DNA of 64,000 nt from NCBI RefSeq assembly GCF_048403405.1, contig NZ_CP183129.1. One strand, given 5' to 3'. This stretch comes from Escherichia coli. Lineage in GTDB: Bacteria; Pseudomonadota; Gammaproteobacteria; Enterobacterales; Enterobacteriaceae. Below are positions 5,000 through 31,472 of this stretch, piece by piece; position 1 is the stretch's first letter, and each line of letters starts with the position of its first letter. Below the pieces are notes generated by a model that worked only from the letters and a program-made list of their open reading frames with translations, was not told where the DNA came from and searched no databases. Both the position numbers and the translations under genes were made by a program.

Positions 5000-5362
5000 A
5001 TTAATATTAAATCGGATTATTTTTAGCGCTGAATGTGAAATTTAAATAAAAAGGACTCTTCCATGAGTCAAAATCCTTGAAATCTTAAGGGTAAGATAAA
5101 AGGTCATTAGACAGAATGACACGTTTTATTAATAAATAAAGCTATTGTTTCATTCGTGTGTTTTTCTTTACAAAAGTAATCCTTGCTATGGTTGGTTAAT
5201 CATGCGTTAATGGTGTTCTGGTTTGTTACAAAATTATCTGAAGCAGTCATTGTTATAATTTTATTATTTGTACCTCTTGAGATTTCCTTGTTGGTTTTTC
5301 TCTCTGATATTTTTTTTCGGACCATTCTGCCCAAGGGCTAACTTCTTCAAAAGGTAATAATG

Positions 5363-5575
5363 ATGTCTAACAAAATGACTGGTTTAGTGAAATGGTTTAA
5401 CCCTGAAAAAGGTTTTGGTTTCATCACGCCGAAAGATGGTAGCAAAGATGTGTTTGTCCATTTCTCAGCTATTCAGAGCAACGATTTCAAAACGTTAACT
5501 GAGAATCAGGAAGTCGAATTTGGTATTGAGAACGGACCTAAAGGCCCCGCGGCTGTTCATGTTGTGGCACTTTGA
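5363..5575 (+). CDS. cspI: cold-shock protein, CspI-like
   Basis: 70 aa, [43 protein letters not shown]...; long AT-rich leader. Confidence 0.85.
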
Positions 5576-5775
5576 GGTAGATAATATTACAAACCATATT
5601 CACTTTAGATGCCCGTGTTGCCATGGTTCTCAGTATAGAACATCATCTTTTGATGTTTCTGACAGGAATCCTTTCGGGGCAAAATGTATCTTTTGTAAAT
5701 CAATGATGATTACATTTGATAATATTTCACAATACTTAAATGTTAGCCGTCTATCGTTAGATTTAAGAAAGTGAA

Positions 5776-6077: not shown

Positions 6078-6249
6078 TTTGATTCTAATGCATTGATAAT
6101 AAATGATAATCATCTTTATCTGTTTGTGTGAAATTTAGACCGTCGTATGTTGATTATTGCGATGTTTCATCTTATCTTTTATACGTTTGCTCCATATAAT
6201 TGACACTACTGTGTACCAGGAAAGTCATAACAGACTAAAAGAGGAAATG

Positions 6250-6423: not shown

Positions 6424-6716
6424 TCTGTTTAGTATTAGCATCAATTTCTCATCAGATGCTATTCAACAATACAAATTACCCATAAACCTCGTTTTTACGG
6501 GGTTTTGTTATATTTAAACATTACCGAATAGGTATAAATCTCGATTGTCGATGGTATTGGTTGTGTGACAATACCTAGTCTTTCCGGTATGCCTGATGAG
6601 AATACAAACGACAGATTATGTAAGGGAAACGCGCTGAATCTTTAACTCTTTCATGCTGAGTGATTTGACGTTATATTTTTAGCCGTAAGTGAAGAGCAAA
6701 CGCATGGAGCGACAAA

Positions 6717-6923
6717 ATGCATAAAGATCAATACACTGATGCCCCCTCCCAGGAGCAGGTTCGTGTAAAAACTATGCTTAATAGCACCATTTCGATGGGT
6801 TACCCGGATGTTGTAATTGCATGTATAGAACATCAAGTGTCTCTGGAAGCATTCAGGGCAATTGAGGCCGCGTTAGTAAAGCACGATAAGAATACGAAGG
6901 ATTATTCCCTGGTGGTTGACTGA
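6717..6923 (+). CDS. hypothetical protein (68 aa)
   Basis: ATG preceded by GGAG; no family recognised. Confidence 0.35.
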
Positions 6924-7286
6924 TCACCATAACTGCTAACCATTCTGACCATTTCACAAGTGACAGAGTCAATATCGTATTCTGTCACTGTCAGGCTAAT
7001 ACAGCAATGCAATTCAACTACAGCAATGCCTCGTATTTAGGTGAATTTACAATATCGTCCAGTTCGGATGCCGGCTGCATTTCTGAAGATAAGGCATTTC
7101 GGTTCTCGTATTTTCCCCTCATGCTCGTCAGTCCTGCGCGTAGTAAGAAACAGGACACTCACACTAATTTGTGTGGGCATGCTGTGATGTCCTTCTGAAT
7201 TATCCCCATGCCATTATGTAAAGCTCTGTTAAAGATGCTCGTCACGGTTGTCAGGCTGTCGGGTCCTCCCAGTGGGGGGCCCTGCC

Positions 7287-7306
7287 ACGGGGCGGGAGCG
7301 TCGCGG
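7287..7306. promoter_or_regulatory. cohesive-end site (cosN-like) for terminase
   Basis: ACGGGGCGGGAGCGTCGCGG closely parallels lambda cosN context ACGGGGCGGCGACCTCGCGG; lies ~185 bp upstream of the terminase small subunit start, as in lambda. Confidence 0.65.
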
Positions 7307-7473
7307 AAAAAGGCTAGTTTTTGCATTTCCATGGCGGCGGCAGCATGTTTGGTAATTTATTGATAATTAAAAGTTATTTCCCTTTTCACCTGTACAATAT
7401 TTTTTTCTTCCTGTCATTAGACCAGTTTGCAATTAATTGAAATATATAAATAAACCTGATTTTCACCTGCCAG

Positions 7474-8013
7474 ATGGAGTTGCTTATGTCAAATGTGAGC
7501 GGGATCGGTGATGCTTATTACTGGAGTGTTTTTAAAATCGCCGAGGCCTTTGGGCTTCACCGGGACACAGTAAAAAAACGGCTCCTCGCGGCCAACACTC
7601 CTGTGGCTGCGACTGTCAGGGGGAACCCCGTTTACGCCCTGCAGCATGTCGGGCCCGCCCTGTTTAGTGTGAAGCATGAGGCAGCAGACTCTGTTCATGA
7701 TCCATCCCGTATGGAGCCGAAAGAGAGAAAGGACTGGTACCAGTCTGAAAATGAAAGGATCAAGCTGGAAAAGGAGCAGCGAAAACTCATCCCAGTTGAT
7801 GAAGTAGTCATCGTCTATTCGTCCATGAGAAAGGCTGTCGTCCAGGTTCTGGAGACAATTCCGGATGTTCTTGAACGCGATTGCGCTCTGACTCCTCAGG
7901 CCGTCGGCGTTGTACAGCAGGCCATTGATGACCTGCGATACACTCTTCAGGAAAAATCCTACGAGGCTTGTGCTGCTGAATTAATTCCTGATGAGGAAGG
8001 AGAGAGTCTCTAG
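7474..8013 (+). CDS. terminase small subunit
   Basis: 179 aa; N-terminal helix-turn-helix (SVFKIAEAFGLHRDTVKKRL); immediately upstream of the large subunit and downstream of cos. Confidence 0.7.
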   Translation: MELLMSNVSGIGDAYYWSVFKIAEAFGLHRDTVKKRLLAANTPVAATVRGNPVYALQHVGPALFSVKHEAADSVHDPSRMEPKERKDWYQSENERIKLEKEQRKLIPVDEVVIVYSSMRKAVVQVLETIPDVLERDCALTPQAVGVVQQAIDDLRYTLQEKSYEACAAELIPDEEGESL

Positions 8014-8021
8014 GAGGAATA

Positions 8022-10121
8022 ATGGGTTTTTCATCAGCCCGAAATTTGGGAAGGGACATATCGGCAGGATTTTCCCCACCACGTCGCATGCCGATTTCGG
8101 AGGCTGTTAAAAAATTCATGCGTGTTCCCAAGGGGGCTGGTAACTCGGTGCCATGGGATCCTGAACTGACACCCTACATCATTGAGCCCATGAACTGCCT
8201 GGCATCGCGTGAATACGATGCGGTGATTTTTGTTGGTCCTGCGCGAACAGGGAAGACCATTGGTCTGATCGATGGATGGATTGTCTATACCATCGTTTGC
8301 GATCCTTCGGACATGCTCGTTGTGCAGATGACCGAAGATAAGGCCCGCGAGCATTCTAAAAAGCGCCTCGACAGAACGTTCAGAAGCAGTGCGGCGGTAA
8401 AGAAAAGAATGAGTCCACGTCGTAACGACAATAATGTCCATGATAAGACGTTCAGGGATGGCTCGTTCCTTAAAATTGGTTGGCCCTCGGTCAACATTAT
8501 GTCGTCGTCGGATTACCGGTTTGTCGCCTTAACCGATTACGACCGTTTTCCGGAGAATATCGACAGCGAGGGTGATGGTTTCTCCCTGGCCTCAAAACGT
8601 ACCACCACATTTATGTCCGCCGGGATGACTCTGGTGGAGAGCTCGCCGGGACGTGACATCTGCGACAGCAAATGGCGACGTAAGTCGCCTCATGAAGCGC
8701 CACCGACGACTGGTATTCTTTCCCTTTACAATCGTGGTGACCGCCGCCGCTGGTACTGGCCATGTCCGCACTGCGGTGAATATTTTCAGCCAGCTATGGA
8801 TGCCATGACCGGCTACCGTAATGAACCGGATCCCTTTAAAGCCAGTGAGGCGGCGTATCTACTTTGCCCGCACTGCAGCGGCATTATCACTGCGGAGAAA
8901 AAGCGTGAGCTCAATAGTGCAGGAGTCTGGTTGCGTGAAGGTCAGGTCATTGATCGTAACGGCAACGTTTCCGGTGAACCGCGCCGCTCCCGTATCGCCA
9001 GTTTCTGGATGGAAGGGCCAGCTGCTGCGTATCAGACCTGGGCGCAACTGGTTTACAAATTACTGACTGCAGAACAGGAGTATGAAGCGACAGGAAGCGA
9101 AGAAACACTCAGGGCGGTTATCAACACCGACTGGGGATTGCCTTATCTTCCTCGTGCCAGCATGGAGCAACGAAAAAGTGAACTGCTTGAGCAGCGGGCA
9201 GAGCCAGTTCCTTCCTGCAGTGTGCCGGATGGCGTTAATTTCCTTGTGGCGACAGTGGATGTGCAGGCGGGACGTCATCGCCGTTTTGTGGTTCAGGTAA
9301 CTGGCTATGGCAGTCGTGGCGAACGCTGGATTATTGATCGTTACAATATCACGCAGTCATTGCGCAGTGACTGCGACGGGGAGAGCCAGCGAATTGATCC
9401 GGCCAGCTATCCGGAAGACTGGGATGTCCTGCTGACGGATGTTTTTCATAAAAGCTGGCCGCTGGCCTCCGATCCTTCTCAACAAATGCGACTGATGGCA
9501 ATGGCGGTGGACTCCGGCGGTGAAGACGGGGTCACTGATAATGCCTATAAATTCTGGCGTCGTTGCCGTCGTGATGGCCTTGGTAAACGTATTTACCTGT
9601 TTAAGGGCGACAGCATCCGGCGCGCAAAACTGATCACCCGTACATTCCCTGATAACACCGGACGAACGGGCCGACGGGCGCAGGCCGCAGGTGATGTGCC
9701 GCTCTGGCTTCTTCAGACGGATGCACTGAAAGACCGGGTGAATAACGCGTTATGGCGTGACTCGCCAGGTCCCGGCTATGTGCATTTCCCTGACTGGCTG
9801 GGGAGCTGGTTTTACGACGAACTGACGTATGAAGAGCGGAGCAGTGACGGGAAATGGAGTAAGCCGGGTCGCGGTGCCAACGAAGCTTTTGACCTGATGG
9901 TGTATGCCGAGGCTCTGGTCATTCTGCATGGATACGAAAAGATCCGCTGGCCGGATGCACCGGAGTGGGCGAGCCGGGAAACCTGGCTGGAGTGTGTCCC
10001 GGACAGTACCGAACCGTCACCCTCACCGGAACCGGTATCCACGCCTGTTAAAAAACAAAAACGGAAGAAAACAGTAACTGACGATGTTAACCCCTGGCTG
10101 ACTTCCGGAGGATGGTTATGA
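8022..10121 (+). CDS. terminase large subunit (lambda GpA family)
   Basis: 699 aa; Walker A motif GPARTGKT; C-terminal nuclease-like region; gene order. Confidence 0.9.
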   Translation: MGFSSARNLGRDISAGFSPPRRMPISEAVKKFMRVPKGAGNSVPWDPELTPYIIEPMNCLASREYDAVIFVGPARTGKTIGLIDGWIVYTIVCDPSDMLVVQMTEDKAREHSKKRLDRTFRSSAAVKKRMSPRRNDNNVHDKTFRDGSFLKIGWPSVNIMSSSDYRFVALTDYDRFPENIDSEGDGFSLASKRTTTFMSAGMTLVESSPGRDICDSKWRRKSPHEAPPTTGILSLYNRGDRRRWYWPCPHCGEYFQPAMDAMTGYRNEPDPFKASEAAYLLCPHCSGIITAEKKRELNSAGVWLREGQVIDRNGNVSGEPRRSRIASFWMEGPAAAYQTWAQLVYKLLTAEQEYEATGSEETLRAVINTDWGLPYLPRASMEQRKSELLEQRAEPVPSCSVPDGVNFLVATVDVQAGRHRRFVVQVTGYGSRGERWIIDRYNITQSLRSDCDGESQRIDPASYPEDWDVLLTDVFHKSWPLASDPSQQMRLMAMAVDSGGEDGVTDNAYKFWRRCRRDGLGKRIYLFKGDSIRRAKLITRTFPDNTGRTGRRAQAAGDVPLWLLQTDALKDRVNNALWRDSPGPGYVHFPDWLGSWFYDELTYEERSSDGKWSKPGRGANEAFDLMVYAEALVILHGYEKIRWPDAPEWASRETWLECVPDSTEPSPSPEPVSTPVKKQKRKKTVTDDVNPWLTSGGWL

Positions 10122-25917: not shown

Positions 25918-26517
25918 ATGCGTAAAGTTTGTGCAGCCATTTTGTCCGCAGCCATCTGTCTGTCCGTATCCGGTGCGCCTGCATGGGCATCTGAACATCA
26001 GTCCACGCTGAGCGCGGGGTATCTTCATGCCTCGACGAACGTTCCCGGCAGCGATGATCTTAACGGGATTAACGTGAAATACCGTTATGAGTTTACGGAC
26101 ACACTGGGGCTGGTGACGTCATTCAGCTATGCAGGAGACAAGAATCGCCAGCTTACCCGTTACAGCAATACCCGCTGGCATGAAGATTCCGTGCGTAACC
26201 GCTGGTTCAGCGTGATGGTGGGGCCGTCTGTGCGCGTGAATGAATGGTTCAGCGCGTATGCGATGGCGGGTATGGCTTACAGCCGTGTGTCGACCTTCTC
26301 CGGGGATTATCTCCGCGTAACTGACAACAAGGGGAAAACGCACGATGTGCTGACCGGAAGTGATGACGGTCGCCACAGCAACACGTCTCTGGCGTGGGGG
26401 GCTGGCGTGCAGTTTAACCCGACCGAATCCGTGGCCATTGACCTTGCTTATGAAGGTTCCGGCAGTGGTGACTGGCGCACTGACGGTTTCATCGTGGGTG
26501 TCGGTTATAAATTCTGA
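25918..26517 (+). CDS. lom: Lom/Ail-family outer membrane protein
   Basis: 199 aa; signal peptide; beta-barrel C-terminal ...GVGYKF; own terminator; classic position after J. Confidence 0.85.
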
Positions 26518-26542
26518 TTAGCCAGGTAACACAGTGTTATGA

Positions 26543-26572
26543 CAGCCCGCCGGTTCAGGCGGGCTTTTTTGT
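26543..26572 (+). terminator. rho-independent terminator after lom
   Basis: cagcccgccggttcaggcgggctttttt. Confidence 0.6.
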
Positions 26573-26581
26573 GGAGTGGAT

Positions 26582-28987
26582 ATGGCAGCAGTAAAAATCT
26601 CAGGTGTGCTGAAAGATGGTGCGGGAAAACCAATACAGAACTGCACTATTCAACTGAAGGCAAAGCGTAACAGCACCACGGTACTGGTGAACACGGTGGC
26701 CTCTGAAAATCCGGATGAAGCCGGGCGTTACAGCATGGATGTTGAGTATGGCCAGTACAGCGTTATCCTGCTTGTTGAAGGTTTTCCGCCTTCACATGCC
26801 GGAACCATTACCGTCTATGAAGGTTCCAGACCAGGTACGCTGAATGATTTTCTCGGTGCCATGACGGAAGATGATGTCATGCCGGAGGCATTGCGTCGTT
26901 TTGAGGAAATGGTGGAAGAAGCGGCACGCAACGCCGAAGCCGCCTCTCAGAGCGCAGCGGCGGCAAAGAAATCCGAAACTGCAGCGGCATCATCAAAGAA
27001 CGCGGCGAAAACCTCAGAAACGAATGCAGCTAATAGTGCACAGGCGGCAGCGACCTCAAAGACTGCATCGGCAAACTCCGCGACAGCAGCCAAAAAATCA
27101 GAAACCAACGCGAAAAATAGCGAGACAGCCGCAAAGACGAGCGAAACCAACGCAAAGTCCAGCCAGACGGCAGCGAAAACCAGCGAAACGAATGCCAAAG
27201 CCAGTGAAACTGCGGCAAAAAACAGCCAGGTTGCAGCAGCCCAAAGCGAGAGCGCGGCAGCCGGTTCTGCGACTTCAGCAGCTGGATCAGCAACTGCTGC
27301 GGCTAACAGCCAGAAAGCTGCGAAGACGAGTGAAACTAACGCAAAGTCCAGCCAGACGGCAGCGAAGACCAGCGAAACGAATGCCAAAGCCAGTGAAACT
27401 GCGGCGAAAAGCAGTCAGGATGCAGCGGCCCAAAGCGAGAGTGCCGCAGCCAGTTCTGCAAGCGCGGCGGCTGCTTCTGCCACTGCATCAGCTAACAGTC
27501 AAAAAGCAGCAAAAACCAGTGAAACCAACGCAAAGGCGAGCGAGACTGCGGCGGCGAACTCGGCGCAAGCATCGGCAGCAAGCCAGACAGCAGCTAAAGC
27601 AAGTGAAGACGCAGCCAGAGAGTATGCAAGCCAGGCAGCGGAGCCGTATAAACAAGTTTTGCAGCCGTTGCCCGATGTGTGGATACCGTTTAATGATTCA
27701 CTGGATATGATTACGGGCTTTTCGCCATCATATAAAAAAATTGTTATTGGCGACGATGAAATAACAATGCCTGGCGACAAGATTGTAAAGTTTAAACGCG
27801 CATCGAAAGCAACTTACATTAATAAATCTGGTGTGCTGACAGAGGCTGCCATTGACGAGCCACGATTTGAACGTGATGGCCTGCTTATTGAGGGGCAAAG
27901 AACTAACCTGCTAATCAATTCAACAAATCCGACTAAATGGAACAAGTCGTCAAATATGATCTTAAGTGCATCAGGTGTAGATGATTTCGGATTCCAGTAC
28001 GCAAAATTTACATTAAAACCAGAAATGGTAGGGCAAATTTCAGCGATTAACATAGTAACCGTTTCCGGCAGTAAAGGTTTTGATGTAACAGGCGGAGAAA
28101 AGTATGTAACCATATCATGCAGGGTGCAAAGTGGCACTCCAAATTTAAGATGCCGATTACGATTTGAAAACTATGATGGTTCTACCTACACATTCTTAGG
28201 TGACGCTTACTTAAATACGACAGATTTATCTATTGATAAGACGGGTGGTGCCGCTAATCGCATTACTGCAAGGGCTGTTAAAGATGAAGCAAGCAAATGG
28301 ATCTTTTTTGAGGCGACAATTAAGGCACTTGATACAGAAAATATGATAGGTGGAATGGTTCAGTATGCCCCGGCAAAAGGAGTGGGCACTGGCGCGGATG
28401 ATTATATTTATATTGCGACCCCTCAAGTTGAAGGTGGGGCGTGCGCTTCATCGTTTATTATAACAGGCGCATCCCCTGTAACACGCGCCAGCGATATTGT
28501 AACGGTCCCCATTTCTCTAAATTGGTGCAATCCCGCTATTAGTTCATTAGCAGAAGTTAATACCAATTGGGATGAATCGCCAAACAAAGAAGGTAGCGCA
28601 CGTATTCTTAATATTTCCACTACGGGAGATACAACTGAAATTGCAGATGAAAGTTATATGTATTTGGGGTATACATCTTTGGGAGCACGCGCAATCATTA
28701 CAAATGGTAAAGGCACTAAAATAGAATATAAAAGCGTTATAGAACGACCAGAGAGAAAAAGCATTATCGGCTTTAGATTCACAGAAAGTCGAGAATTGTG
28801 TGTTGTGGTTAACGGTAATATTGGTGCTAAGGTAGTTTCTCCTTATAAAAAACACAAATATACAGGAGGCTTCATTAATATTGGTGGTCAATCATCATCC
28901 GGCAACCGTCACCTATTTGGACACGTTCGAAATCTGCGTATTTGGCACAAGGCATTGACTGATGCTCAGATGGGGGAGTCAATCTAA
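26582..28987 (+). CDS. stf: side tail fibre protein Stf with a replaced, low-GC C-terminal receptor-binding module
   Basis: N-terminus MAAVKISGVLKDGAGKPIQNCTIQLKAKRNSTT... matches recalled lambda Stf; Ala/Ser/Thr-rich repeats; C-terminal ~440 aa of lower GC with a possible lectin-like motif. Confidence 0.85.
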   Translation: MAAVKISGVLKDGAGKPIQNCTIQLKAKRNSTTVLVNTVASENPDEAGRYSMDVEYGQYSVILLVEGFPPSHAGTITVYEGSRPGTLNDFLGAMTEDDVMPEALRRFEEMVEEAARNAEAASQSAAAAKKSETAAASSKNAAKTSETNAANSAQAAATSKTASANSATAAKKSETNAKNSETAAKTSETNAKSSQTAAKTSETNAKASETAAKNSQVAAAQSESAAAGSATSAAGSATAAANSQKAAKTSETNAKSSQTAAKTSETNAKASETAAKSSQDAAAQSESAAASSASAAAASATASANSQKAAKTSETNAKASETAAANSAQASAASQTAAKASEDAAREYASQAAEPYKQVLQPLPDVWIPFNDSLDMITGFSPSYKKIVIGDDEITMPGDKIVKFKRASKATYINKSGVLTEAAIDEPRFERDGLLIEGQRTNLLINSTNPTKWNKSSNMILSASGVDDFGFQYAKFTLKPEMVGQISAINIVTVSGSKGFDVTGGEKYVTISCRVQSGTPNLRCRLRFENYDGSTYTFLGDAYLNTTDLSIDKTGGAANRITARAVKDEASKWIFFEATIKALDTENMIGGMVQYAPAKGVGTGADDYIYIATPQVEGGACASSFIITGASPVTRASDIVTVPISLNWCNPAISSLAEVNTNWDESPNKEGSARILNISTTGDTTEIADESYMYLGYTSLGARAIITNGKGTKIEYKSVIERPERKSIIGFRFTESRELCVVVNGNIGAKVVSPYKKHKYTGGFINIGGQSSSGNRHLFGHVRNLRIWHKALTDAQMGESI
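27100..27560. repeat. about 2.4 tandem copies of a 189-bp (63-codon) in-frame repeat inside stf
   Basis: cgcaaagtccagccagacggcagcgaa(a/g)accagcgaaacgaatgccaaagccagtgaaactgcggc recurs at 27151 and 27340. Confidence 0.7.
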
Positions 28988-29268
28988 TGAAAGATTTAAC
29001 ACTCAAATTTGCCGACAGGGCCGACTTTTCGGCCTTTATGGGAAGTATTGGCTATTATAATGACGAGTCGATGCAGGATGATATTCTGATTGATGTGATA
29101 GGTAACGTGTACAAAGAAACCGGAGAGCTGACTGAAGATGGCGAACCGGTATGTGTTAAGGAAGATGGATATTTTGTAAACGTGCGCATCATTAAGGATA
29201 CGCAAATATCGTCATTATTCGATGAATACGTGGTTGCTGTTGAGCATCAACTTCGTGGCTGGATGTGA
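28987..29268 (+). CDS. ORF-A: small acidic protein (93 aa), function unknown
   Basis: ATG overlaps the stf stop (TAATG); about 19 Asp/Glu versus 8 Lys/Arg; no family recognised. Confidence 0.5.
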   Translation: MKDLTLKFADRADFSAFMGSIGYYNDESMQDDILIDVIGNVYKETGELTEDGEPVCVKEDGYFVNVRIIKDTQISSLFDEYVVAVEHQLRGWM

Positions 29269-29277
29269 GGAAGAAAA

Positions 29278-30318
29278 ATGGCTACATCGACAGTAATTCC
29301 TGATGACATCAAAACGCTAAAATCCGACGTTAGCAAATTAAAAAACGATCAAGGAAGCTACGCAACAAAATTATATGTAGACAGCAAAGATGAAATCGTT
29401 GGTGACTGGTCTGCTTCATGGTATCAGCAGGTATTGCCAACTAGCGGAGCTATATTTGGGAGAAAACTCCGCTCAACTCACAGGACGGCAGGTGTTGAGG
29501 ATGCGTATTGCGAACTATACCTCAAAAAATGGATAGACAGTCCAGGTAACGCAATGGCGCGCCTTAACCTGAACGATAACGGGACAAACATTTGCTGGGA
29601 CTTTACCAACCTTTATGGCGGTACGATGATTTTTCCCGGTGACAGCGGATACCTCAAAATGGGTAACTGCCTTATGTCATACAGCAAGCGTGGAAGTAAC
29701 GCGCTTATTAAATTTGATTACACCGACACATTACAGATCAAATATGCCAATCATGGGTCAACCATGACATTAAACACACAGGGAACCGCTTATGCTGGTG
29801 TTACTGCTCAATTGTGGGGCAACTCCAGCCGTCCTGTTGTTTATGAAGTCGGTGTTGATGGTGGCGCTTATATGTTCTATGCGCAAAAAAATACCGATAA
29901 CACCTATATGTTAAGCGTTAATGGTGCATGTCATGCCACCGCATTTAACCAGCATTCCGACCGGGATCTGAAAGACAACATTCAGGTGATCGATAATGCA
30001 ACCGACCGCATCCGTAAAATGAACGGCTATACATACACGCTTAAAGAAAACGGTATGCCCTATGCTGGTGTCATTGCACAGGAAGCTCTGGAAGCAATCC
30101 CAGAAGTTGTAGGTTCCGCAATGAAATATCAGGACGGCGCAAGCGGATCGGAAGGTGAAGAAGGTGAACGTTATTACACAGTAGATTATTCTGGTGTTAC
30201 TGGCTTGCTTGTTCAGGTAGCCAGAGAGTCAGACGACAGAATAACAGCACTGGAAGAAGAAAACGCAGAATTAAGACAAAGATTATCTGCAATTGAGGCG
30301 GCGCTTGCGTCTAAATAA
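29278..30318 (+). CDS. ORF-B: fibre/tailspike-like protein (346 aa) with C-terminal intramolecular-chaperone (peptidase S74-like) domain
   Basis: RBS GGAAG; C-terminal SDRDLKDNIQ...YTYTLKENGMPYAGVIAQEALEAIPEVV...coiled-coil ITALEEENAELRQRLSAIEAAL, the pattern of autoproteolytic fibre chaperone domains; hairpin aggggccgagcgcccc after the stop. Confidence 0.6.
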   Translation: MATSTVIPDDIKTLKSDVSKLKNDQGSYATKLYVDSKDEIVGDWSASWYQQVLPTSGAIFGRKLRSTHRTAGVEDAYCELYLKKWIDSPGNAMARLNLNDNGTNICWDFTNLYGGTMIFPGDSGYLKMGNCLMSYSKRGSNALIKFDYTDTLQIKYANHGSTMTLNTQGTAYAGVTAQLWGNSSRPVVYEVGVDGGAYMFYAQKNTDNTYMLSVNGACHATAFNQHSDRDLKDNIQVIDNATDRIRKMNGYTYTLKENGMPYAGVIAQEALEAIPEVVGSAMKYQDGASGSEGEEGERYYTVDYSGVTGLLVQVARESDDRITALEEENAELRQRLSAIEAALASK

Positions 30319-30360
30319 TATCAAGGGGCCGAGCGCCCCGTTTTATTGGGTAGGATGAAA

Positions 30361-30654
30361 ATGGATATAACACCTTTCCTTCATGCGCTTTGTGCTGTGG
30401 CTGCGCAGCTACTGGTTGGTCTTTTTACCGGGAACTGGGCTTACGGGGCGATAGCCGGTTGTACGTTCTTCATTGCGCGTGAACACACCCAGGCGGAATA
30501 TCGCTGGATTGAAATGTTTGGGCATGGCAAGAGGATTAACATGCCGTGGTGGGGCGGTTTTGATCCGCGCGTGTGGGATGTGGCAAGCCTGATGGATTTT
30601 GCTGTGCCGGTGGTGGCGTGTCTGCTGGTCTGGCTGTTGGTTAATCGTGGGTGA
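30361..30654 (+). CDS. ORF-C: small membrane protein (97 aa; 2-3 predicted transmembrane segments)
   Basis: Hydrophobic stretches ALCAVAAQLLVGLF, GAIAGCTFFIA, VPVVACLLVWLLV; AGGA 5 nt upstream of ATG; start could also be 30346 or 30355. Confidence 0.5.
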   Translation: MDITPFLHALCAVAAQLLVGLFTGNWAYGAIAGCTFFIAREHTQAEYRWIEMFGHGKRINMPWWGGFDPRVWDVASLMDFAVPVVACLLVWLLVNRG

Positions 30655-30664
30655 AAAAAGGTGA

Positions 30665-30784
30665 GCTGTATATGCAACGGAGGAAGAAACCCCGTTGCTG
30701 GAAGCCTGGAAAAAGTATCGGGTGTTGCTGAACCGTGTTGATACGTCAACTGCACAGGATATTGAATGGCCAGCACTGCCGTAG
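30665..30784 (+). pseudogene. tfa: 3-prime remnant of tail-fibre assembly gene tfa (last ~36 codons only)
   Basis: Frame opening right after the ORF-C stop reads [39 protein letters not shown], matching the recalled lambda Tfa C-terminus; no start codon or N-terminal domain. Confidence 0.7.
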
Positions 30785-30881
30785 GGTAAAACATATAAAT
30801 TCTATAATTAGATGTATCTTTCCATTTACGGCAAGGAAGGGGGCTTGGAAGACGTAAAGCATCTCACACCGAGATTATTTT

Positions 30882-31472
30882 TTATATGTCAGGTGTCTGA
30901 AGTTTTGCTTTGGCTCTTAAAATGGTTTGCCGCGAGGTTTTGAATTCCCGGGCAATGGCACTTATACTTACACCTGACTTAATTCGTTCGAATACCACCT
31001 GTTTCTGTTCTTCATTTAACACAGGTGGTCGACCAAAACGTTTCCCTGCGCCCCGGGCTCTTACTATCCCGGAATGAGTGCGTTCAAGTAAAAGGTCTCG
31101 TTCAAATTCAGCGACTGCTGAAATTACTTGCATCATCATTTTTCCTGTTGGACTGGTCAGGTCAATGCCCCCCAATGCTAAGCAATGCACTCTGATACCT
31201 GTTTCGGTCAGTTGTTCCACTGTTTTCCTGATATCCATTGCATTACAACCAAGGCGATCCAGTTTTGTCACAATCAATTGATCACCACATTTCAGGCGAG
31301 CAAGCAACCGGTTAAAACCAGGACGCTCACTGGTTGCTGCTGAGCCGCTAATGTGTTCTTCGATTATTTGCTGAGGTTTGATTTTAAAACCTGCACTTTC
31401 GATTTCCCGGCGTTGATTTTCGGTGGTCTGATCCAGCGTTGATATCCGACAGTAAGCAAAAATTCGAGACAT
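30882..31472 (-). CDS. pinQ: serine recombinase (invertase/resolvase family), PinQ/PinR-like
   Basis: 196 aa; catalytic-region motif YCRISTLDQ; C-terminal helix-turn-helix; same position as pinQ next to tfa and ydfK in K-12 Qin. Confidence 0.75.

Follow-up and report, generated by a model that had tools for sequence, protein, structure and literature searches.

A lambda-like cos site with a predicted variant cohesive end in an Escherichia coli prophage of the Tritos/cdtI type

Our analysis indicates, with a probability that we put at roughly 0.9, that positions 7261-7473 of the window (the whole 64-kb stretch of E. coli DNA analyzed here) are the cos of a lambdoid prophage of the Tritos/cdtI type residing at the Qin locus, where lambda-style cleavage would leave GGGCGGGAGCGT 5' overhangs. 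The site is real but ordinary, being of an already-known kind whose divergence from lambda is the published pattern. It adds one more natural cosN variant to those that fit the published rule that cohesive-end bases 7-12 are free to vary. Although of little importance beyond annotation, it would mark the ends of the virion chromosome in a very common type of E. coli prophage, which is of use when prophage maps are oriented or read pile-ups in viromes are interpreted.

The cosN core and its conservation

The original prediction had placed a lambda-like cos with a variant cohesive end at 7287-7306. The window reads ACGGGGCGGGAGCGTCGCGG there, exactly as predicted, and the sequence-level hallmarks of a lambda-like cos surround it. 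Alignment with the lambda 20-mer ACGGGGCGGCGACCTCGCGG showed 16 of 20 bases to be identical. Also as predicted, the site departs from lambda only centrally: the four mismatches are bases 7, 8, 9 and 11 of the 12-nt cohesive end and thus all fall within bases 7-12, and lambda has the same left half, GGGCGG, and the same CG on either flank. When both strands of the 64-kb window were searched, this was the only site with up to four, or up to five, mismatches to the lambda 20-mer, against a chance expectation of 0.036 from base composition; none with three or fewer was found. The lambda junction (from NC_001416) reads ...GGGTCCTTTCCGGTGATCCGACAGGTTACG / GGGCGGCGACCT / CGCGGGTTTTCGC and that of the window ...GGGTCCTCCCAGTGGGGGGCCCTGCCACG / GGGCGGGAGCGT / CGCGGAAAAAGGC.

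We delimit cosN, the nicking site, to 7285-7306 (no strand assigned) from the lambda match, its symmetry, the near-invariant flanks and the ends of published phage records. Two-fold rotational symmetry extends over 12 of its 22 bp, compared with 10 of 22 in lambda counted in the same way. By comparison with lambda, Gifsy-1 and related IMG/VR loci, the top strand would be nicked between 7289 and 7290 and the bottom strand between 7301 and 7302, with a CG dinucleotide present at both places. The predicted product is a 12-nt 5' cohesive end, GGGCGGGAGCGT, at 7290-7301 on the plus strand, with the complement, ACGCTCCCGCCC, expected at the right-hand terminus of the virion DNA; the length and polarity of the overhang are likewise predicted from these comparisons.

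Lambda-like phages have been defined by 12-base 5' extensions with identity to that of lambda, with CG pairs at the nicks and a 7-bp cosQ conserved among them, and differences at bases 7-12 are common, N15 differing at 9 and 12 and Gifsy-1 at 8, 9 and 11 (Feiss et al. 2015). The end of the Gifsy-1 record, GGGCGGCAGCGT, confirms that description and differs from the window's cohesive end at position 7 alone (C7G). Since Gifsy-1 is listed as lambda-like, the window's end lies one substitution from a listed lambda-like end. The two phages also share the cosQ heptamer GGGTCCT; unlike the window, Gifsy-1 has a Nu1-type small terminase, a head module of the lambda/21 type, and CGCAGG rather than CGCGG to the right of the overhang. 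We had considered Gifsy-1 as a phage with a DUF1441 small terminase, the family found in the window; this was rejected on account of its Nu1-type protein, the DUF1441 phage being Gifsy-2.

With the small terminase (TerS) as query we gathered 80 IMG/VR loci, the proteins being 53-100% identical, and examined 78 of them. This comparison with the cos sites of related prophages bears the prediction out: 67 of the 78 loci have the frame ACG-N12-CGCGG, at 183-186 nt ahead of the small-terminase gene, and within the same frame the inner 12-mer takes 11 forms. The window's own GGGCGGGAGCGT was present in 45 of the 78, and the other forms include GGGCGGCGGACT, AGGCGGCGGCCC, GGGCGGCAGCGG and lambda's GGGCGGCGACCT. 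The variation falls mainly in overhang bases 7-12, in agreement with the published lambda-like pattern; a site cut by staggered nicks would be expected to keep its frame in this way while the bases inside it change. When conservation was profiled over 17 diverse representatives, CCACG and CGCGG proved near-invariant, CCACGGGGCGG (7285-7296) was conserved, and conservation was low at 7297-7301. Among 120 matching IMG/VR stretches, mostly prophages in isolate genomes, none starts at the cos site.

Single-strand folding of 7255-7330 was no better than that of shuffled sequence (z 0.33), and a hairpin role at cos was therefore dropped. No Rfam family matched at cos, and a scan of 6700-7700 for promoters and terminators found none. 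Across 7070-7363, database records annotate short hypothetical ORFs that span cosN (among them mEp460_059 and a PhiR40_1 CDS). The ORFs of the window are instead 7007-7198 and 7208-7363. Since the frames are not conserved, such calls over a conserved non-coding flank are probably spurious.

Flanking elements and the predicted course of packaging

Positions below are counted from the left end, with 7290 as +1. The heptamer GGGTCCT at 7261-7267 (plus strand) is identical in the right end of lambda and in Gifsy-1, and we take it to be lambda's cosQ, the packaging-termination element. It spans -28 to -22 in the window and -29 to -23 in lambda, so that cosQ starts 29 nt before the top-strand nick, 1 bp nearer than the 30 nt of lambda and Gifsy-1. 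A block GGT[C/A]CT[C/T]C is kept across loci whose TerS proteins are 53-100% identical, and the profile showed GGTCCTCC (7262-7271) to be conserved. Within 7261-7284, a partly complementary G-rich stretch lies 4-5 bp past the heptamer (GGGTCCTCC..GGGGGGCCC); in the more distant relatives GGTACTCC frequently occurs together with GGGGTACC, a combination that could point to an inverted repeat whose arms co-vary.

To the right of cosN, at the position of lambda's I2, lies the segment CGCGGAAAAAGGCTAGTTTTTGCATTTCCATGG (7302-7334, plus strand), made up of CGCGG and an A-tract/T-tract and separating cosN from cosB. It is highly conserved in the 17 representatives and is also found in mEp460, mEp460_ev081 and PhiR40_1, despite their different TerS/cosB cassette. 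In lambda, I2 is needed for termination (Feiss et al. 2015).

The cosB region is AT-rich (22-33% G+C), in contrast to the cosQ-cosN core (72%), and a GC-rich core followed by an AT-rich cosB is also the arrangement of lambda. Its first conserved block, GGCGGCAGCATGT at 7336-7348 (+47 to +59, plus strand), has the form GCAGCAGGTG in relatives and, judging from conservation and position (lambda R3 is at +53), may be an R3-equivalent TerS site. An IHF consensus site, TATCAATAAATTA, follows on the minus strand at 7353-7365 (+64 to +76) as a candidate equivalent of I1, which in lambda lies between R3 and R2. The consensus WATCAANNNNTTR has only four matches in the 64 kb, of which this is one; TAA-N4-TTGAT (7353-7366) is conserved in relatives, and strict matches occur at +64 in PSTCR8lys and +59 in mEp460_4F5. 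These observations suggest that IHF would be used here.

A k-mer count brought out the direct repeat TTTTCACCTG, which has exactly two copies in the 64-kb window, both on the plus strand and both in cosB. Copy 1, at 7383-7392 (+94 to +103), is a candidate R2 equivalent; its position is kept as TTCA(CC/GG)TG in relatives, and 7385-7397 forms a block in the profile. Copy 2, at 7460-7469 (+171 to +180), is a candidate R1 equivalent lying directly upstream of the TerS ribosome-binding site. It is kept as TTCACCTG[C/A]CAG in all relatives with the same TerS recognition-helix sequence, PSTCR8lys for example, and 7461-7472 is again a profile block. Between the two copies, CTGTCATTAGACCAGTTT (7411-7428, plus strand) is conserved across loci with 53-100% identical TerS.

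We infer from this pattern which cosB blocks the small terminase would bind. Two exact TTTTCACCTG copies in direct orientation and a loose R3-like block, all candidate TerS sites, are collinear with lambda R3-I1-R2-R1, with an IHF site between candidate TerS sites as in lambda. In lambda, the R sites are of the CGTTTCC type, with an inverted R2 at +114 and R1 at +155. That the candidate sites are direct repeats, unlike lambda's inverted R3/R2, and that the R3-like block is a loose match count against a lambda layout.

In the course of events that we propose, the small terminase would bind cosB (about 7336-7470) with the aid of a bend that IHF induces at 7353-7365, and the cosB-bound complex would position the gpA-family large terminase on cosN. 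The nuclease would then introduce the two staggered nicks, and strand separation would leave the two ends with complementary 12-nt 5' overhangs. Packaging would run rightward from the cosB-bearing end until the next cos was recognized via cosQ, cosN and the adjacent conserved segment, where a cut would finish the chromosome.

Terminase genes and an exchangeable cassette

As a lambda-like cos should, the site falls where the late/lysis region meets the head genes, directly in front of TerS. Upstream are lysozyme, Rz, cspI with a cspA-type thermoregulator, ynfN, gnsB and a small hypothetical gene; downstream, in order, are TerS, the large terminase (TerL), a small adaptor-like ORF, a lambda-family portal, a ClpP-capsid fusion and lambda-like tail genes. 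The thermoregulator ahead of cspI (5205-5621) gave a strong Rfam match (112.8 bits, E 2.3e-29), as expected for that gene family.

TerS (7474-8013, plus strand, 179 aa) belongs to Pfam family DUF1441 (E 1.7e-44). The cdtI record starts the protein at ATG 7474, and PGAP and the Tritos record start it at ATG 7486. The predicted distance of about 185 bp to the small terminase agrees with the first of these, 7290 being 184 nt before ATG 7474 and 196 nt upstream of ATG 7486 (ATG at +185 or +197; +191 in lambda, so that both phages have the start some 190 nt from the left end). A GGAG at 7476-7479 and the MSN... start of a Providencia homologue favour 7486 as the likely true start.

TerL (8022-10121, plus strand, 699 aa) is of the lambda gpA family, the cos-type family according to the cited link between terminase family and end type. 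It has both the ATPase and the cos-cutting endonuclease domains of a gpA-type large subunit (GpA_ATPase, PF05876, E 5e-81; GpA_nuclease, PF20454, E 2.3e-86), although its identity to lambda gpA is no more than 24% across 627 aa (BLASTP, E 7e-22).

The small subunit was a different matter. It had been predicted not to be Nu1-like, and at the level of the family this stands: the protein belongs to DUF1441, does not match Phage_Nu1 (PF07471) even at E <=10, and gave E 4.6 in a pairwise BLASTP with Nu1, so that the small subunit, unlike lambda's, is not of the Nu1 family. The claim goes too far where more distant likeness is concerned. Comparison of nine DUF1441 terminases with 11 Nu1 proteins by hhalign (E 2.5e-4, probability 43%, both from shallow alignments) gave a collinear alignment of residues 16-132 with Nu1 2-139, and several Nu1-family proteins carry precomputed matches to both DUF1441 and Phage_Nu1. 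An AlphaFold model of TerS (pLDDT 75) predicts an N-terminal domain of the order strand-helix-helix-strand-strand-helix, after which come three long helices. Foldseek placed that domain with MerR-like winged-helix binders and a viral small-terminase DNA-binding domain, with target-normalised TM-scores of 0.57-0.72 over ~48 residues and weak E values (0.07-1.7). Since gpNu1 binds DNA through a MerR-like winged helix-turn-helix, the predicted fold would have the same architecture. No gpNu1 entry was among the 50 Foldseek matches listed, and a search of PDB sequences with TerS gave no meaningful match. Distant homology of TerS and Nu1 is thus plausible but unproven.

Breaks in identity with mEp460_ev081 and PhiR40_1 delimit a cassette at 7330-8117 (plus strand) that holds cosB and TerS together with the opening ~32 codons of TerL. 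The mEp460_ev081 genome is 97% identical to the window over 7000-7329, and 96% identical from 8118 through the head and tail genes; between 7330 and 8117 it has a different cosB and a TerS that is 41.7% identical as protein. PhiR40_1 likewise has the same cosQ, cosN and right-flanking segment with another cosB and TerS. Its TerL is 87% identical overall, with the first 19 residues unalignable and ~99% identity from about residue 380 on, which covers most of the nuclease domain. Across mEp460_ev081 and PhiR-type phages, identity with the window was 95-97% in the flanks and about 41-42% in TerS. This pattern of swaps indicates that cosQ and cosN travel with the nuclease, and cosB with TerS and the very N terminus of TerL. 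Such an arrangement is expected from the lambda/21 specificity work (summarised in Feiss et al. 2015), of which the cassette exchange is a natural, and expected, parallel.

The mEp213/LLS and mEp460-type phages share with the window the terminase families, the ClpP-capsid head type and the segment to the right of cosN, and have a 12-nt 5' site in the same frame, GGGCGGCGCGCT in LLS and GGGCGGGAGCGG in mEp460. They differ in TerS, which is ~41% identical, and in cosB, which is unrelated and carries CATCATCAT / GATGTCGAA-type motifs; together these differences imply a different specificity of packaging initiation. One could speculate that DUF1441 small terminases form an initiation class of their own, using direct TTTTCACCTG repeats 77 bp apart and an IHF bend in place of inverted R3/R2, and that near-identical phages exchange the 7330-8117 cassette to change specificity, with no change in cosQ, cosN or the nuclease; we hold this extension to be tentative and rather doubtful.

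A separate feature of mEp460_ev081 (LR597641) is a ~96-bp tandem duplication of the cosB segment immediately right of cosN, at ~703-893 of that locus, in which GGCTAGTTTTTGAAATTTCATCCGTC...TTGTTTTTTGT occurs twice.

Published relatives, state of the prophage and cut geometry

A megablast of 7000-8100 against a phage collection showed that two published records, deposited independently of each other, cdtI (AB285204 / NC_009514) and Tritos (OV696610), start at query base 291. Both thus begin at window position 7290, the first G of GGGCGGGAGCGT, and both end ...CCTGCCACG (...CCACG). The two records may have been opened at this base by analogy with lambda rather than from data. In both phages cosQ and cosN are identical to those of the window and TerS is 100% identical; cosB is 97.4% identical in cdtI and 99.5% in Tritos, and the only differences are scattered substitutions in the left flank and cosB. 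The cdt toxin cargo of cdtI lies elsewhere in its genome. Tritos, prophage 3 of E. coli LF82, makes virions, and a plaque-forming isolate has been imaged as a siphovirus (Tritos paper, which does not deal with cos). Since the cos region of Tritos is 99.8% identical to that of the window, a near-identical cos region serves a viable phage.

The 281-bp cos region is 100% identical in E. coli strain Ecol_316, where the prophage also occupies the Qin locus. Among 5426 complete E. coli genomes, 661 carry the full region and 2110 a part of it. PGAP leaves the site unannotated, and a literature search for the exact 12-mer returned only unrelated eukaryotic or other-virus papers.

Whether this particular copy still yields infectious particles is a separate matter. 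The cos could be an intact-looking relic in a prophage that no longer produces them, a reading compatible with the main one and one to which we give a minor but appreciable chance. At ~25919-31002 the lom gene is split by the IS21-family element ISEc10 (istA/istB, about 26146-28397), and its neighbour, the side-tail-fibre gene, carries an annotation as a pseudogene truncated at the C terminus, so the copy may be partly defective and its cos site may be idle. The Qin locus, moreover, holds a cryptic remnant in K-12. Against this, lom and stf are dispensable in lambda, and the genes for TerS, TerL, portal and capsid, and the tail genes as far as J, have their full length and share 97-98% identity with those of the plaque-forming Tritos, besides the near-identity of the cos region itself.

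For the site as such, the exact cut geometry is the main residual uncertainty. A true cos could be cut to give an overhang shorter or longer than 12 nt, or one shifted by a base or two, and relatives with the same terminase families give some reason to consider this. Between ACG and CGCGG there are 11 nt in VT1-Sakai and 14 nt in Gifsy-2 instead of 12, which reflects either different overhang lengths or decayed sites. For Cr-LKS3, which also has a DUF1441 TerS, 5'-extended cohesive ends of 9 nt have been reported at the equivalent CG/GGGC. Together, these spacings and the Cr-LKS3 overhang indicate that overhang length is not fixed in the clade. The mEp460_4F5 record (LR595868) is broken 5 nt left of the predicted nick, and its cosN is without 3 nt of the right half (GGGCGGGAGCG-CGG). 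That break, however, is probably an artefact of assembly where the physical cohesive ends lie. In the window phage the spacing is exactly 12, as in the 67 loci noted above; a CG stands at each nick, GGGCGG and its flanks are the same as in lambda and Gifsy-1, and both published records open exactly at 7290. We therefore consider a different cut geometry improbable and retain the 12-nt staggered cut.

That the site is a chance GC-rich likeness to lambda cosN, with headful (pac) packaging or a cos elsewhere, is effectively excluded: a 16/20 match alone (~0.04 expected per window) could be fortuitous, but loci with 53-100% identical TerS keep the position, the flanking cosQ and the CG-N12-CG frame, TerL belongs to the cos-type gpA family, and homologous sites have been annotated or reported as 5' cohesive ends in LLS and Cr-LKS3. 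At the corresponding position, the LLS record labels GGGCGGCGCGCT a 5' extended single-strand cohesive site, which its authors deduced by analogy with a putative mEp213 site (LLS paper).

Two of the IMG/VR entries carry the site twice. In IMGVR_UViG_2541047735_000008, two exact copies of a 24-nt sequence comprising cosN and its right flank lie at 6242 and 9561, 3.3 kb apart, and a second contig, IMGVR_UViG_3300045988_166115, also has two copies of the 24-nt sequence.
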